NCBI RefSeq assembly: GCF_003334255.1
Contig: NZ_QOWU01000040.1
Origin: Escherichia coli
GTDB lineage: Bacteria > Pseudomonadota > Gammaproteobacteria > Enterobacterales > Enterobacteriaceae
Length of the DNA stretch: 49,174 nt
Reading direction: 5' to 3' (one strand)
A program made the position numbers and the translations under genes. Within the stretch, counting starts at the first letter, position 1, and each line of letters begins with the position of its first letter. Below, piece after piece: positions 30,289 through 34,093 of this stretch. Below the pieces are notes generated by a model. The model was not told where the DNA came from. It did no database searches and saw only the letters and a list, made by a program, of their open reading frames with translations.

Positions 30289-30452
30289 CGGTCGTGTTCT
30301 CCGTAACGAATTATTGATAAGGTGAATATTTTTCTGCGGGCTATTTTACATACTTAACTCCATAGCCGTTAGTTATCCCTTCCTAAAGTAGAAACCAACA
30401 ACAAAGAAGCATAAAATCAACATTTCATTAACCAATGAAGTGTAAGGATGAT

Positions 30453-30920
30453 ATGTCTGCCGTACTGACCGCTGAACAAGCCCTGAAATTAGTGGGTGAG
30501 ATGTTTGTTTATCACATGCCATTTAACCGCGCATTGGGGATGGAACTGGAGCGTTACGAAAAAGAGTTCGCACAGCTGGCCTTTAAAAATCAGCCAATGA
30601 TGGTGGGCAACTGGGCGCAAAGCATTTTGCACGGCGGGGTCATTGCGTCGGCGCTGGATGTCGCCGCCGGTCTGGTGTGCGTGGGAAGTACCTTAACCCG
30701 CCACGAAACCATCAGTGAAGATGAACTACGCCAGCGGCTATCGCGGATGGGGACCATTGATCTTCGCGTTGATTATCTGCGCCCAGGCAGGGGCGAGCGT
30801 TTTACTGCTACTAGTAGCCTGTTGCGTGCAGGCAATAAAGTCGCCGTCGCCCGCGTTGAATTACACAATGAAGAACAGCTTTATATTGCCAGTGCCACCG
30901 CCACCTATATGGTAGGTTGA
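30453..30920 (+). CDS. yigI: Hotdog-fold (PaaI/4HBT family) acyl-CoA thioesterase
   Basis: Track ORF 30435..30920. Start trimmed to the ATG at 30453 ([18 protein letters not shown]), 155 aa. Confidence 0.85.
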
Positions 30921-30971: not shown

Positions 30972-31862
30972 ATGGATGCAAAACAAACGCGGCAGGGCGT
31001 ATTACTCGCTCTTGCCGCTTATTTTATTTGGGGTATAGCGCCAGCGTACTTCAAGTTGATTTACTACGTGCCCGCCGATGAAATCCTGACGCATCGCGTG
31101 ATCTGGTCGTTTTTCTTTATGGTGGTGCTGATGAGCATTTGCCGCCAGTGGTCCTATTTAAAAACGCTGATTCAGACGCCACAGAAAATTTTTATGCTGG
31201 CAGTCTCTGCCGTGCTGATTGGTGGCAACTGGCTACTGTTTATCTGGGCGGTGAACAATCACCATATGCTGGAAGCGAGCCTTGGTTACTTTATTAACCC
31301 GCTGGTGAACATTGTGCTGGGGATGATTTTCCTCGGCGAGCGATTCCGCCGGATGCAATGGCTGGCGGTGATTCTGGCGATATGTGGCGTGTTAGTCCAG
31401 CTGTGGACTTTTGGTTCGCTACCTATTATCGCGCTGGGACTGGCATTTAGTTTTGCCTTCTACGGTCTGGTACGCAAGAAGATTGCCGTTGAAGCGCAAA
31501 CCGGCATGTTAATCGAAACCATGTGGCTGCTGCCCGTGGCGGCAATTTACCTGTTTGCTATTGCCGACAGCTCAACCAGCCATATGGGGCAAAACCCGAT
31601 GTCGCTGAATTTACTGCTGATCGCCGCCGGTATTGTCACTACCGTACCGCTGTTGTGTTTTACCGCCGCTGCCACGCGCTTGCGTCTCTCAACGTTAGGC
31701 TTTTTCCAGTACATTGGCCCGACGCTGATGTTCCTGCTGGCTGTGACGTTTTATGGTGAAAAACCGGGTGCCGATAAGATGGTGACTTTCGCCTTTATTT
31801 GGGTGGCGCTGGCAATTTTTGTGATGGATGCGATTTATACGCAGCGTAGAACGTCCAAATAA
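30972..31862 (+). CDS. rarD: EamA/DMT-family membrane protein RarD
   Basis: 296-aa polytopic membrane ORF starting MDAKQTRQGVLLALAAYFIWGIAPAYFKL. Confidence 0.95.
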   Translation: MDAKQTRQGVLLALAAYFIWGIAPAYFKLIYYVPADEILTHRVIWSFFFMVVLMSICRQWSYLKTLIQTPQKIFMLAVSAVLIGGNWLLFIWAVNNHHMLEASLGYFINPLVNIVLGMIFLGERFRRMQWLAVILAICGVLVQLWTFGSLPIIALGLAFSFAFYGLVRKKIAVEAQTGMLIETMWLLPVAAIYLFAIADSSTSHMGQNPMSLNLLLIAAGIVTTVPLLCFTAAATRLRLSTLGFFQYIGPTLMFLLAVTFYGEKPGADKMVTFAFIWVALAIFVMDAIYTQRRTSK

Positions 31863-31956
31863 AAAATAAATATATTCTGAAAAAATATGCCGACTCTTGC
31901 ATGAGAGTGGGCATATTGCCATGCTGACCGGAGACTCATACAAGGATGTAAAATTT

Positions 31957-32337
31957 ATGTTACGTATATTTATCCCAACATCTAACGGTAAGATTTCCAG
32001 ACGTCGTTATATATTTTCATTTATTTTAATAAATTTCATTTTTGCCTTTCTTATTATCTTTTTTAACGATGGAGAAGCAGGCTTTCTTGTTATAGTCTCT
32101 ACCATCGTACTCCATTATCTCGTCATCAACATGAATTGCCAGCGACTCCGTGATAGTGGTTTCATCTATATAAAAACTTATGTTTTTGGTACATTAGCAG
32201 TATATATCATCTCTATCATCACAATGATAGCCGAAGATTTTGCCTGTTCAGGCAATGGTTCGATGATTTTTTTGATTTGTTATTTTTCCACTTTCAGTAT
32301 GCTAATGCTTGCACCTACTGATTCATCAAAACAATAG
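31957..32337 (+). CDS. yigG: Small inner-membrane protein of unknown function (YigG)
   Basis: Track ORF 31897..32337. I recall yigG as 126 aa, which matches the ATG at 31957 ([18 protein letters not shown]); alternative starts are 31897 and 31921. Very AT-rich and hydrophobic. Confidence 0.6.
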
Positions 32338-32350
32338 TTATGGAGTATTT

Positions 32351-32731
32351 ATGAGTAAGGAATATATGAACGATGGTTCATTAAGTGAAAAATGGAAATA
32401 CCGATTTAATTTTTATGATCAACATGGTTTTCCTGGATTCTGGGGGGCAACACCAGAATATAAAGCAGCATTTAAAGCATTAAAAGTAAGACAACGCTTA
32501 ACTATTCAAATGAATTTCATTGCTTTCTTCTGTTCCTGGATATATTTATTTGTCCTGGGGTTATGGAAAAAAGCAATTATAGTTCTATTACTTGGTATTC
32601 TATCTCTATTTGTTGGTGCACTAATTGGCGTTAACATTCTGGGAATTGCCGTAGCAGCCTATGTTGCTGTTAACACGAACAAATGGTTCTATGAGAAAGA
32701 GGTAAAAGGGTTAAATACCTGGAGCCTTTGA
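32351..32731 (+). CDS. yigF: Small inner-membrane protein of unknown function (YigF; DUF2628-like as I recall)
   Basis: Track ORF 32309..32731. Start trimmed to the ATG at 32351 (MSKEYMNDGSLSEKWKY), preceded by GGAG, giving 126 aa. Confidence 0.65.
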   Translation: MSKEYMNDGSLSEKWKYRFNFYDQHGFPGFWGATPEYKAAFKALKVRQRLTIQMNFIAFFCSWIYLFVLGLWKKAIIVLLLGILSLFVGALIGVNILGIAVAAYVAVNTNKWFYEKEVKGLNTWSL

Positions 32732-32737
32732 ATAACA

Positions 32738-32775
32738 GGTGGCTTAGCCAGACTAAGCCACCGCTCTCGTTTTTT
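32738..32775. terminator. Hairpin terminator between convergent yigF and corA
   Basis: GGTGGCTTAG-CCAGA-CTAAGCCACC 10-bp stem followed by GCTCTCGTTTTTT; the T-run overlaps the corA stop codon. Confidence 0.65.
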
Positions 32776-33724
32776 ACAACCAGTTCTTCCGCTTAAAGTA
32801 CAGATACGGTGCCAGGCCCGCGAGGATCATAAAGATAATCGCGCCAGGGTAGCCGAAGCTCCACTTCAGTTCTGGCATAAACTCAAAGTTCATGCCATAG
32901 CTGGAAGCAACGAGCGTCGGCGGCAGGAATACCACGGATACCACCGAGAAGATTTTGATGATGCGGTTCTGCTCGATGTTGATAAAACCCATTGCCGCCT
33001 GCATCAGGAAGTTCACCTTCTGGAACAGGGATTCGTTATGCGGCAGCAGGGATTCGATATCTCGCAGGATTTCACGCGCCTGCTCCAGTTGCCCACCCGG
33101 TAAACGCGCTTTACGCACCAGGAAGTTGAGCGCGCGCTGGGTATCCATCAGACACAGGCGAACTTTCCAGCCGATATCTTCCAGTTCCGCCAGAGTGGAG
33201 AGCGCCTCGTCGTACTCATCGCCCTGATGCCCTTCCATAATCACCCGGCTCAACTGCTCCAGGTCGCTATAGATATTTTCAATTTCATCTGCCAACTGTT
33301 CGATTTTGGTTTCGAACAGATCCAGCAGCAACTCGTAGGCGTTACCGTCTACCATCGACTGGCTACGGGCACGCATACGATACAGACGAAAAGCGGGCAG
33401 TTCACGCTCACGCAGAGTAAACAGACGACCATCACGGATGGTAAATGCCACAGTGGAGTTACCGGCGTGATCTTCCGCATCTTCAAAGAAGAAGAAGGAG
33501 TGAATATGCAGGCCGTCGTCGTCTTCAAAGAAACGTGCCGATGCTTCGATGTCTTCCAGTTCCGGGCGGGTTGCCAGGCTCTGGCCAAGTTCAGATTGTA
33601 CGCGCAGTCGCTCGTCGTCGTCCGGTTCGACAAGATCAATCCATACTGCATTTACAAGGGGTTGTGACTCTTCGACTTCCAGCCGGGTCAGTCGGTTATT
33701 TTCCAGTTGAAATGCGCTCAGCAT
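32774..33724 (-). CDS. corA: Magnesium/cobalt transport protein CorA
   Basis: Track ORF 32774..33739. Start trimmed to the internal ATG ([17 protein letters not shown]), 316 aa. C-terminal YGMNF motif present. Confidence 0.95.
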
Positions 33725-34093
33725 GACCGGGACTCCCAATGCTTAAAATATCGGACAGTTCGGTGGGCACACAGAAACAAATTGGGTTTCAGACCATTAA
33801 ACAGCCTGACTCAGCGCGACGGGAAAAATTGAGGTCGCTGACAACCGCTAAGGCTATCAGCAAAAAGGGATAGCCTTAGGAGTTGATCCTGGATGACAGG
33901 ATAGTGAGCCAGTATCTACTGGGTGTGTCCAAGGCGAATGTCCTCTTAGAGTGATCGTGCGCGCATGTTACGCCAGCAAAATTTTGCCGTCAACACGCAA
34001 CAGAACACCACAGAACAATAGTTGAACTTCGCGCTTTTTGGTACTCGTCAAGGTCGCTAACAGGATAAAAAAATCCCACATCCAGGACCTATA

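Follow-up and report, generated by a model that had tools for sequence, protein, structure and literature searches.

Whether the AT-rich two-gene islet between rarD and corA of Escherichia coli is a recent import or a long-standing resident of that position is the question raised by this locus. An earlier note, made from the sequence of the stretch analysed here (49,174 nucleotides of contig NZ_QOWU01000040.1, hereafter the window), had singled out the islet as the only part of the window with the look of horizontally acquired DNA. The observation is correct and already published, i.e., the locus is annotated and, in the figures, tables and passages that mention it, stands as a literature example of AT-rich, H-NS-silenced and presumed foreign DNA of E. 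coli K-12. Taken as a whole, the locus is quite probably best explained as an old AT-rich yigG-yigF cassette, silenced by H-NS, exchanged by recombination and with a role at the cell envelope.

Composition and Organisation of the Islet

The locus is the E. coli K-12 yigG-yigF operon, an atypical two-gene cassette occupying the slot between rarD and corA with two conserved hairpins around it (Table 1). RefSeq annotation confirms the gene names and the location given in the earlier note. The two tandem plus-strand ORFs of 126 codons are each preceded by a Shine-Dalgarno motif; the 13-nt spacer, which holds the motif of yigF, suggests a two-gene operon. The GC content of positions 31863-32773 is 0.347 against 0.530 for the remainder of the window (z = -7.2 relative to the other 911-nt windows, with a mean of 0.532, a standard deviation of 0.026 and a minimum of 0.436), and an 800-nt GC profile of the whole window reaches its minimum (0.346) at the same place, the second-lowest value being 0.472. 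The sharp drop reported earlier is thus real, the difference from the neighbours is strong and the islet is the sole compositional outlier of the window; even the hand count of 20-32% GC for the initial 120 nt of yigG is close to the computed 25.8% (17-33% in 30-nt blocks). Codon usage points the same way, with GC at third codon positions (GC3) of 0.315 for yigG and 0.283 for yigF vs. 0.51-0.69 for 35 reference genes, and a codon adaptation index, derived from genes of the same window, of 0.49 for the pair vs. 0.55-0.76 for the reference genes. As such, yigG-yigF combines two marks of a xenogeneically silenced island, namely an AT content well above the host average and an atypical codon usage.

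Table 1. Features of the rarD-corA junction, with positions in the window
Feature	Position	Strand	Evidence
rarD (EamA-family transporter), conserved left flank	30972..31862	+	ORF, RefSeq annotation; RarD 84-100% identical across genera
Left-edge hairpin just after rarD, 8+6 bp with single-base bulges	31884..31917		Folding, covariation
Shine-Dalgarno-like AAGGA, 10 nt before the yigG ATG	31942..31946	+	Sequence reading
yigG, 126-aa four-helix inner-membrane protein, divergent DUF805-like	31957..32337	+	PRK11371, weak DUF805, AF2, Foldseek, dN/dS
Fragment in yigG with published H-NS-repressed intragenic sigma-70 promoter, AT-tract-dependent	32109..32258	+	PMC7229825 primers
Shine-Dalgarno GGAG of yigF, inside the yigG-yigF spacer	32342..32345	+	Sequence reading
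yigF, 126-aa DUF2628 protein	32351..32731	+	Pfam, AF2, Foldseek, alignment, dN/dS
Right-edge GC-rich 10-bp hairpin, common to convergent yigF and corA	32738..32762		Folding, covariation
corA (Mg/Co transporter), conserved right flank	32774..33724	-	ORF, RefSeq annotation, cross-genus comparison

A low GC content could in principle follow from the proteins alone, both being small, hydrophobic and rich in Ile, Phe, Leu, Asn and Lys. Written in the codon usage of the window, yigG and yigF would have a GC content of 0.42 and 0.46, respectively, vs. 0.51-0.58 for the other genes, so that about half of the GC deficit is a matter of amino-acid composition; likewise, DUF2628 genes at 71 other loci average 6.6 GC points under their surroundings. 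Against this, GC3 is 0.28-0.32 where host codon usage would give 0.58-0.59 for the same proteins, the non-coding leader (31863-31956) is AT-rich too, and rarD, which also encodes a polytopic membrane protein, has a GC content of 0.506 and a GC3 of 0.62. Amino-acid composition is therefore a partial contributor to the low GC content, refuted by GC3 as the full explanation and very unlikely to be the only cause.

The Proteins YigG and YigF

YigG is a membrane protein with four helices and a likeness to DUF805. Over residues 1-126, it matches the equivalog model NF008474 of NCBIfam (PRK11371) with 255.6 bits (E = 1e-76; cutoff 217), and its AF2 model (pLDDT 83) shows four long helices. The resemblance to DUF805 proteins perceived in the earlier note is real, although weak, since K-12 YigG scores under the Pfam threshold for DUF805 (PF05656; E = 0.023, 15.6 bits). 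Among eight diverse members of the YigG family, a DUF805 match is obtained at E <= 0.001 for two and at E <= 0.1 for five (best 5.8e-5), DUF805 being the sole Pfam family to recur across the members tested, and a distant relative (P0183) bears a weak precomputed DUF805 match. In Foldseek, the orthologues come first and ranks 18-46 are nearly all DUF805, albeit with weak scores (E 0.26-3; query-normalised TM 0.40-0.70). YigG resembles DUF805 proteins, e.g., YhaH and YhaI of E. coli, in (i) what may be a common multi-helix membrane fold, (ii) an arginine-rich segment ahead of helix 1, and (iii) an R-x-R-D-x-G motif after helix 2; the conserved residues of YigG are R15, R63-x-R65-D66-x-G68 and P120. 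It differs from them by its sub-threshold score and by the tiny size of its clade: a set of 1.84 billion proteins yields 37 representatives of it at E <= 0.001, and in the sampled loci the clade is restricted to the rarD-corA slot of Enterobacteriaceae, with the exception of one distant plasmid-like relative.

YigF is clearly a DUF2628 membrane protein, as stated in the earlier note. The match to Pfam DUF2628 (PF10947; E = 5.2e-10, 40.1 bits) covers residues 17-117 and positions 9-91 of the 93 of the model, homologues of YigF bear the same family in precomputed annotation, and the AF2 model has a pLDDT of 85.5. Foldseek returned 141 matches at E <= 0.001; among the best 50 of these 141, all except two are named DUF2628, and the query-normalised TM of full-length matches is mostly 0.75-0.99. 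YigF thus belongs to DUF2628 by sequence and by fold, with relatives in Pseudomonas, Pantoea, Proteus, Nocardia and others. About the first 50 residues are polar and are followed by hydrophobic helices, with a conserved LGLWKK motif. The description of both proteins as strongly hydrophobic is consequently apt for YigG (GRAVY 0.90) and less so for YigF (GRAVY 0.36).

The two proteins are not tandem paralogues, a possibility rejected by the lack of a BLASTP alignment between them and an hhalign probability of 0.8%. The order yigG then yigF holds in every lineage with YigG orthologues (at least 30% identical), and among the Kosakonia and metagenomic contigs there is one on which ATGA belongs to both genes, a 4-nt overlap. 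From this conserved adjacency only, it may be proposed that YigG and YigF would jointly serve, in the inner membrane, an accessory envelope function that is usually off. The partnership is not obligatory, since none of 70 more distant DUF2628 loci (Pseudomonas, Pantoea, Proteus and others) has a YigG-like neighbour and since E. coli B combines an intact yigF with a yigG pseudogene. The gene context of DUF2628 in Pseudomonas is ordinary, and a YigG-like partner distinguishes the DUF2628 protein of the Enterobacteriaceae rarD-corA slot from those of the 70 loci. Of note, as the pair is met in this slot alone, its adjacency might be plain inheritance.

Hairpins, Promoters and Silencing

Both edges of the cassette are marked by a hairpin. 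The left one folds with -20.5 kcal/mol (z = -3.9; none of 200 shuffles as stable), and 7 of its 15 pairs show compensatory changes among seven sequences from four genera, namely Escherichia, Salmonella, Superficieibacter and Atlantibacter. It was not called by a consensus terminator scan. On the plus strand, a run of A precedes it, which gives a U6 tail on the minus strand; for this reason, it looks like a terminator of minus-strand (antisense) transcripts and would be a weak terminator on the plus strand. The right hairpin has a stem of -17.5 kcal/mol (z = -3.5 when read as the plus strand, -3.6 as the minus strand) with compensatory changes in 6 of 10 pairs among seven sequences from five genera, and the consensus scan accepted it as a candidate intrinsic (rho-independent) terminator on both strands, marginally only. 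On the plus strand, a T-run (32770-32775) starts 7 nt past the stem; the tail on the other strand reads TGTTATTC. The strong hairpin reported at the end of the pair is confirmed, but its stem ends short of the corA stop codon (32774-32776), which is reached, by two bases, by the T-run alone. A scan of the islet against Rfam gave chance-level matches alone (E 0.45-0.72), far under the gathering scores.

The silencing of this locus is documented. In PMC3661553, yigF-yigG serves as an example (Figure 1) and is tabulated as a 663-bp promoter island with H-NS binding in all studies (Table 1 of that paper), with a listing of two predictions of foreign origin, from Nakamura (2004) and from Lawrence and Ochman (1998); in PMC8282354, yigF-yigG is displayed with its small extended protein occupancy domain as an example of silencing (Figure 7C); and in PMC7229825, an H-NS-repressed promoter inside yigG was dissected, the primers of which (yigG 1.2 F/R) match the window at 32109-32134 and 32234-32258. 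Among the AT-rich promoter islands and extended protein occupancy domains silenced by H-NS in K-12, yigF-yigG, with its spurious intragenic promoters, is therefore itself a published example. Where they deal with the locus, these three papers treat it as generic foreign DNA, with the synteny, the alleles, the alternative cassettes and the T6SS (type VI secretion system) module left aside. A simple sigma-70 consensus scan of 31500-33100 found two promoter-like sites vs. 3.7 expected from shuffles, with none on the plus strand upstream of yigG. The published promoter-island property of yigF-yigG was not reproduced by this crude scan.

The segment might be retained for its DNA, as a promoter island or a site where H-NS nucleates, with ORFs that are incidental. 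The locus is silent and coated with H-NS under laboratory conditions, with many predicted start sites, in the data shown for it (PMC3661553, PMC8282354), and besides the decay of yigG in E. coli B, IS1 insertions or deletions occur within the slot. Nevertheless, both frames are open and of equal length across genera at saturated dS, with dN/dS of 0.05-0.27 overall, i.e., 0.20-0.27 for yigG and 0.14-0.15 for yigF within Escherichia and 0.05-0.13 for yigF vs. other genera; motifs are conserved and structure models confident; and in Salmonella, where yigG is regulated under chlorine stress, its deletion lessens surface attachment (PMC3579871). The two ORFs are genuine genes on which purifying selection acts (dN/dS 0.14-0.27 within Escherichia), and incidental frames are extremely improbable.

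A Polymorphic Slot in E. coli

The presence/absence comparison of the rarD-corA junction reveals a patchy distribution in E. coli. Among 5426 complete genomes, in which haplotypes were categorised from BLAST coverage counts that sum to about 5418, the full pair is present in 2964, and is thus not universal, and comes in two allele classes; an allele about 77% identical is carried by 565 of the 2964, and its YigF is 99% identical to that of E. albertii. The two classes differ by a dS of 0.70-1.25 vs. 0.17 for the adjacent rarD, their divergence starting at the rarD stop and ending at the corA stop, and they appear to predate the species E. coli. Phylogenetic incongruence accompanies this patchiness, K-12 YigF being 84% identical to Salmonella YigF vs. 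70% to the other E. coli allele.

Where the pair is missing, the slot is occupied otherwise. In about 990 genomes, only a 50-nt remnant of yigG persists, beside DUF3289/DUF943, a colicin-M-like T6SS effector-immunity pair (PMC11148199, PMC12135965) found in 2648 of the 5426 genomes, and in 1464 genomes an O157-type cassette carries a distant YigG-like ORF without YigF. Because pair-less genomes hold either a yigG remnant or a distant YigG-like ORF, some form of the YigG family is ancestral to the slot. A minus-strand ORF of 99-104 aa in the O157-type cassette was considered as a relative of DUF805 or DUF2628 and gained no support from Pfam or hhalign. A composite haplotype (299 genomes) runs from yigGF through a corA fragment to DUF3289/DUF943; in such haplotypes of other strains, the last ~145 nt of corA (3' end) are duplicated as a direct repeat. 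In E. whittamii, yigG-yigF is followed by a lone DUF943 immunity gene.

Age of the Cassette

The same slot holds yigG-yigF in Escherichia species, Salmonella, Superficieibacter, Atlantibacter, Kosakonia and one metagenomic relative, i.e., in at least five genera. The GC content of the pair is 0.33-0.37 in most and 0.45 in Kosakonia, that of the flank on the rarD side being 0.47-0.55. Across genera, RarD and CorA are 84-100% and 93-100% identical, respectively, vs. 31-79% for YigG and 44-89% for YigF, and on the Kosakonia and metagenomic contigs identity falls to 29-33% for YigG and 38-49% for YigF. In Salmonella, both cassette types are present and the slot is polymorphic. Among Enterobacteriaceae, this is an old cassette that is AT-rich wherever it occurs and evolves much faster than its flanks; judging from the sequences compared, it has been in the slot, AT-rich, since before the divergence of Escherichia and Salmonella.

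These data bear directly on the reading of the islet as a recent acquisition by E. coli, namely a foreign AT-rich fragment that has not yet drifted to the host composition. Such an event would fit the GC content of 0.347 vs. 0.53, the GC3 of about 0.3 and the low codon adaptation, the absence of the pair from 45% of E. coli genomes and the predictions of foreign origin listed in PMC3661553. However, Salmonella, Superficieibacter, Atlantibacter and Kosakonia have the pair in the same slot and gene order and with low GC as well; E. coli genomes without it still hold a yigG remnant or a distant YigG-like ORF; the split between the allele classes goes deeper than species; and the pair is 68-76% identical at the nucleotide level between genera, near-identical copies, as a common recent donor would give, not being seen. 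Nor does the islet bear the signature of mobility by which a recent arrival is recognised: integrase, IS ends and flanking repeats are lacking in a position that is syntenic in at least five genera. Recent acquisition is largely refuted by this synteny and is quite unlikely. Since slot and low GC are common to several genera, alleles are deep and YigF is phylogenetically incongruent, low GC is here a long-maintained trait and not the mark of a recent arrival. The earlier claim of horizontal acquisition accordingly stands in that no other part of the window is foreign in composition, and falls as far as recent import is concerned.

Proposed Exchange and Origin

A search of the islet edges for direct or inverted repeats yielded nothing meaningful; att sites and IS ends are likewise missing there, and no integrase is present, two small ORFs being all that lies between rarD and corA. 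This lack of flanking mobility genes and repeats points to exchange via recombination in the flanks. Cassettes would be gained, lost or swapped by homologous recombination in rarD, in corA and between duplicated corA 3' ends, with no mobile element involved, and the K-12 arrangement would be the expected product of a recombination between corA repeats that deletes the effector-immunity module.

Other origins were examined and set aside. For anti-phage defence or a phage origin, PADLOC and PHROGs gave no matches, and the apparent phage DNA matches are two unannotated records of 1.6-3.5 kb. For a plasmid origin, the six PLSDB matches are non-mobilizable, with chromosomal genes or of chromosome size, and look mislabelled.

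A Possible Role in Interbacterial Competition

In a further reading of the locus, YigG and/or YigF, and likewise the YigG-like ORF found in the alternative cassette, would give immunity-like protection of the envelope against a toxin targeting the membrane or the periplasm, under diversifying or balancing selection. A colicin-M-like T6SS effector-immunity pair that has been validated does occur in the same slot; in E. whittamii, the lone immunity gene follows yigG-yigF; the proteins are small, located in the inner membrane and fast-diverging, with deep allele classes across species; and both cassette types persist in E. coli and Salmonella. Orphan T6SS effector-immunity modules such as DUF3289/DUF943 likewise are AT-rich, variable and made of small membrane proteins, and the sequential displacement known from immunity arrays resembles the composite and remnant haplotypes of the slot with their duplicated flank fragments. 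Unlike these modules, yigG-yigF is devoid of a neighbouring effector, not homologous to known immunity families and not tied to competition by any experiment: no toxin gene adjoins the pair in K-12 or in the pair-only genera, DUF3289 already has DUF943 as its immunity protein (PMC11148199), and PADLOC and PHROGs are silent. Moreover, the T6SS effector-immunity survey lists neither DUF805 and DUF2628 nor their Pfam accessions in its supplementary tables, DUF2628 genes are elsewhere solitary in ordinary chromosomal contexts, and dN/dS is well under 1. A literature search tying rarD-corA to T6SS orphan modules returned word-fragment artefacts alone. On balance, an immunity-like role is unlikely. 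The broader proposal, i.e., that the slot would be an ancient competition locus where balancing or frequency-dependent selection keeps alleles and cassettes of E. coli, E. albertii and Salmonella beside the T6SS pair, is equally doubtful.

Concluding Remarks

For the old, H-NS-silenced and recombining cassette favoured here, low GC is no evidence of recent transfer, and this calls for caution. A modest lead is provided by the slot itself, an exchange site with multiple haplotypes where about half of E. coli genomes harbour a T6SS toxin-immunity pair. It suggests that two families of domains of unknown function could be approached experimentally from the side of envelope protection or of competition. 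If the reading in terms of competition were true, DUF2628 and a DUF805-like clade would each obtain their first function.

Composition and layout of the islet

From 31400 to 33200, the window is 100% identical to O16:H48 genomes, i.e., E. coli K-12-type DNA, where RefSeq names the successive genes rarD, yigG, yigF, and corA. As an earlier note made from the sequence alone had it, the segment 31863-32773 is an AT-rich islet holding two tandem plus-strand ORFs of 126 codons each, namely yigG and yigF; a 13-nt spacer separates the two. Its GC content is 0.347, compared with 0.530 in the remainder of the window (z = -7.2 relative to the other 911-nt windows, mean 0.532, sd 0.026, minimum 0.436), falls to 25.8% over the first 120 nt of yigG, and makes the islet the sole compositional outlier of the window, with an 800-nt profile low of 0.346 and a next lowest value of 0.472. 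A second, smaller dip at 30300-30500 (0.375-0.42 in 200-nt windows) occupies the divergent pldA-yigI intergenic region and has the look of a normal promoter region, AT-rich as such regions are, rather than of an islet. GC3 is 0.315 in yigG and 0.283 in yigF vs 0.51-0.69 in 35 long genes of the window taken as reference; since recoding the same proteins with the window codon usage would give a GC3 of 0.58-0.59 and a total GC of 0.42-0.46, amino-acid composition and synonymous codon choice each account for roughly half of the shortfall. Amino-acid bias alone is contradicted by this gap in GC3 (0.28-0.32 vs 0.58-0.59 expected).

Features of the rarD-corA region in the window (positions without a handle) and in compared loci
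Feature	Location	Strand	Remark
rarD stop	31862		left limit of islet
Left hairpin	31884-31917		just 3' of rarD
yigG	31957-32337	+	126 codons, Shine-Dalgarno motif upstream
yigF	32351-32731	+	126 codons, Shine-Dalgarno motif upstream
Right hairpin	32738-32762		
corA stop codon	32774-32776		right limit of islet
Short ORF	33876-33932	-	upstream of corA
DUF3289/DUF943 pair	L002:4272-5614		
DUF3289/DUF943 pair	L001:3266-4576		E. coli O157:H7 E32511
DUF3289/DUF943 pair	L088:3001-4337		E. coli B (NEBExpress)
Duplicated corA 3' fragment	L088:2672-2818		between cassettes
Duplicated corA 3' fragment	L001:2933-3079		between cassettes
Duplicated corA 3' fragment	L011:4429-4907		between cassettes, Atlantibacter
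Unannotated YigG-like ORF	L001:2522-2908	+	128 aa, between rarD and corA fragment
yigG with internal stop	L088:1857-2237		E. coli B (NEBExpress)
yigG/yigF removed or interrupted	L004:1451-2329		IS1 insertion or deletion
Distant YigG relative	L094:4001-4399		plasmid-like metagenomic contig
Inserted genes	L090:193-2584		metagenomic Enterobacterales relative

The cassette is bounded by two conserved hairpins, with compensatory changes in 7 of 15 pairs over four genera on the left and in 6 of 10 pairs over five genera on the right. The right one is as strong as the earlier note described, but it does not overlap the corA stop codon by its stem, only the downstream T-run touching it. The left one, which carries a U6 run on the minus strand and went uncalled in a consensus terminator scan, looks better suited to stop antisense transcripts leaving the AT-rich islet than to terminate rarD. 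A crude sigma-70 consensus scan of 31500-33100 gave no promoter enrichment (2 sites vs 3.7 expected). Upstream of corA, the short ORF (TTG start, 18 codons, LDTPSRYWLTILSSRINS) sits where RefSeq places ysgD (YsgD/CorL family) in other genomes of E. coli and Salmonella.

The core claim of the earlier note, an AT-rich gene pair with no known function and a probably foreign origin, can already be read in the literature. PMC3661553 takes yigF-yigG to illustrate a "promoter island" in its Figure 1 and lists the island at 663 bp, with H-NS binding in every dataset and a foreign origin predicted by two methods; an H-NS-repressed, AT-tract-dependent promoter lies inside yigG (PMC7229825; its primers map to 32109-32258), and an extended protein occupancy domain covers both genes, given there as a case of silencing (PMC8282354, Fig 7C). 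In Salmonella, yigG responds to chlorine stress, its deletion lessens surface attachment, and it is absent from serovar Enteritidis (PMC3579871).

The YigG and YigF proteins

YigG passes the cutoff of the NCBIfam YigG equivalog (255.6 bits; cutoff 217). Its proposed resemblance to DUF805 holds as a likeness and not as Pfam membership (E = 0.023); two of eight diverse family members reach DUF805 at E <= 0.001, and no other family recurs among the eight. The AlphaFold2 model (pLDDT 83) exhibits four long helices, and Foldseek places Enterobacteriaceae orthologues first among its neighbours, followed by a series of DUF805 proteins that score weakly. Both the arginine-rich N-terminus and an invariant R-x-R-D-x-G motif after helix 2 are consistent with a DUF805-like protein that has diverged. 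Among 1.84 billion representative proteins, a profile search returned only 37 relatives at E <= 0.001, and the YigG clade is therefore very small. A distant DUF805-like relative (L094) lies directly downstream of topoisomerase III, Hha, H-NS-family and Pmp3 genes; a ParA-family gene follows some 2 kb downstream.

The assignment of YigF to DUF2628 in the earlier note is borne out by sequence (E = 5.2e-10) and fold, and relatives occur in Pseudomonas, Pantoea, Proteus, Nocardia, and others. A relationship between YigG and YigF was considered and rejected, the two being unrelated, and PADLOC and PHROGs models matched neither. When the E. coli allele classes are compared with each other and with E. 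whittamii, yigG has a dN/dS of 0.20-0.27 and yigF one of 0.14-0.15; yigF compared with Superficieibacter and Atlantibacter, where synonymous sites are saturated, gives 0.05-0.13. Given such low values (0.05-0.27), yigG and yigF are real genes, and a reading as incidental ORFs is contradicted. Adjacency conserved at 29-49% identity, together with one case of gene overlap, hints that the two proteins may work together; the argument is a weak one because all examples of the pair share one slot. A YigG-like neighbour was found at 0 of 70 more distant DUF2628 loci.

An old resident of the rarD-corA slot

For the distribution, a scan covered a single genome from each species, and further cases were looked up singly. 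The pair, with yigG ahead of yigF and both between rarD and corA, is found in E. coli and E. whittamii (the E. albertii contig starts at yigF) and in the same slot of Salmonella, Superficieibacter, Atlantibacter, Kosakonia, and a metagenomic relative. Across genera, identity is 84-100% for RarD and 93-100% for CorA vs 31-79% for YigG and 44-89% for YigF, and the GC of the pair is 0.33-0.37 across lineages (Salmonella 0.357; Kosakonia 0.45) vs 0.47-0.55 on the rarD side. Because slot and order are conserved and the pair is AT-rich everywhere, it is an old resident whose low GC has been maintained. "Horizontally acquired," as the earlier note had it, is contradicted by these data in the sense of a recent transfer, and the islet is better read as an ancient, AT-rich cassette whose slot is a polymorphic site of exchange.

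In a metagenomic Enterobacterales relative (L090), LacI-family regulator and mandelate racemase/muconate-lactonizing-enzyme-family genes lie between rarD and a pair of YigG-like and DUF2628 genes, which shows that the slot admits other cargo as well. A 1564-nt "uncultured Alistipes sp." MAG contig (CASFSC010000152.1) encoding RarD (C-terminal 49 aa), YigG, YigF, and CorA (C-terminal 166 aa), all 100% identical to K-12, is almost certainly a piece of E. coli DNA contaminating a Bacteroidota bin. Some PLSDB and phage records (H63-H68) look mislabelled, i.e., 4.9 Mb "plasmids" and a Salmonella Senftenberg "plasmid 4" carrying chromosomal recQ-pldA-yigI-rarD-corA-uvrD, and two "phage" records of 1.6-3.5 kb holding yigG/yigF-like chromosomal DNA.

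Haplotypes and probable exchange

Of 5426 complete E. coli genomes, the full pair is present in 2964, and 565 of these have it as an allele only about 77% identical in DNA, whose YigF is 99% identical to that of E. albertii and 70% to that of K-12; K-12 and Salmonella YigF share 84% identity. Divergence between the allele classes runs from the rarD stop to the corA stop (dS 0.70 for yigG and 1.25 for yigF vs 0.17 for adjacent rarD). About 990 genomes retain a 50-nt remnant as sole trace of yigG, followed by DUF3289/DUF943, and 1464 bear a different, O157:H7-type cassette, namely a 99-104-aa minus-strand ORF, a YigG-like ORF, a 147-nt corA 3' fragment, and DUF3289/DUF943. In O157:H7 E32511, the unannotated ORF encodes a distant YigG-like protein (24-32% identity) in which a K-R-I-R-D-T-G motif is kept; a YigG-family HMM whose building set included that sequence gives it 133.7 bits, and NCBIfam PRK11371 gives E = 5.5e-6. 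In Salmonella, the yigG-yigF and O157-like types are both found, and a related form of the cassette with this ORF occurs there. In some lineages the pair is in decay, with an internal stop in yigG of E. coli B and IS1 insertions or deletions removing or interrupting yigG/yigF in other strains (L004; NZ_CP073949.1).

DUF3289 is a periplasm-acting, colicin-M-like T6SS effector and DUF943 its immunity protein (PMC11148199, PMC12135965). DUF3289 (YPO3983 family) and DUF943 occupy the slot in 2648 of the 5426 genomes, including E. coli B and O157:H7, and are absent from K-12. In 299 composite genomes, such as E. coli B, yigG-yigF is followed by a corA fragment, then DUF3289/DUF943; E. whittamii has the pair with a lone DUF943 gene, and Atlantibacter the pair, fragments of corA and also of rarD (3' end), and DUF3289/DUF943. 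The corA 3' end thereby forms a direct repeat of about 145 nt in composite haplotypes. Such corA/rarD repeats could mediate module loss: if the corA 3' copies recombined, the effector-immunity module would be lost and precisely the K-12 arrangement would remain. The islet borders show no integrase, IS end, or flanking repeat. Replacement of alleles within the limits of rarD and corA fits homologous recombination in these flanks, and we infer that the cassette is exchanged in this way.

An immunity-like role of YigG/YigF in competition is suggested by the sharing of the slot with an effector-immunity module, the depth of the allele classes, and a membrane location, yet no toxin adjoins the pair and neither protein has homology to known immunity families, so that we hold this role to be improbable. 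The best-supported reading is that of a silenced, co-transcribed pair of probable small inner-membrane proteins in an old, fast-evolving accessory cassette exchanged by recombination. The yigG-yigF islet is real, was correctly identified by the earlier note and was already known; the link of its slot to a competition locus offers the one modest lead.
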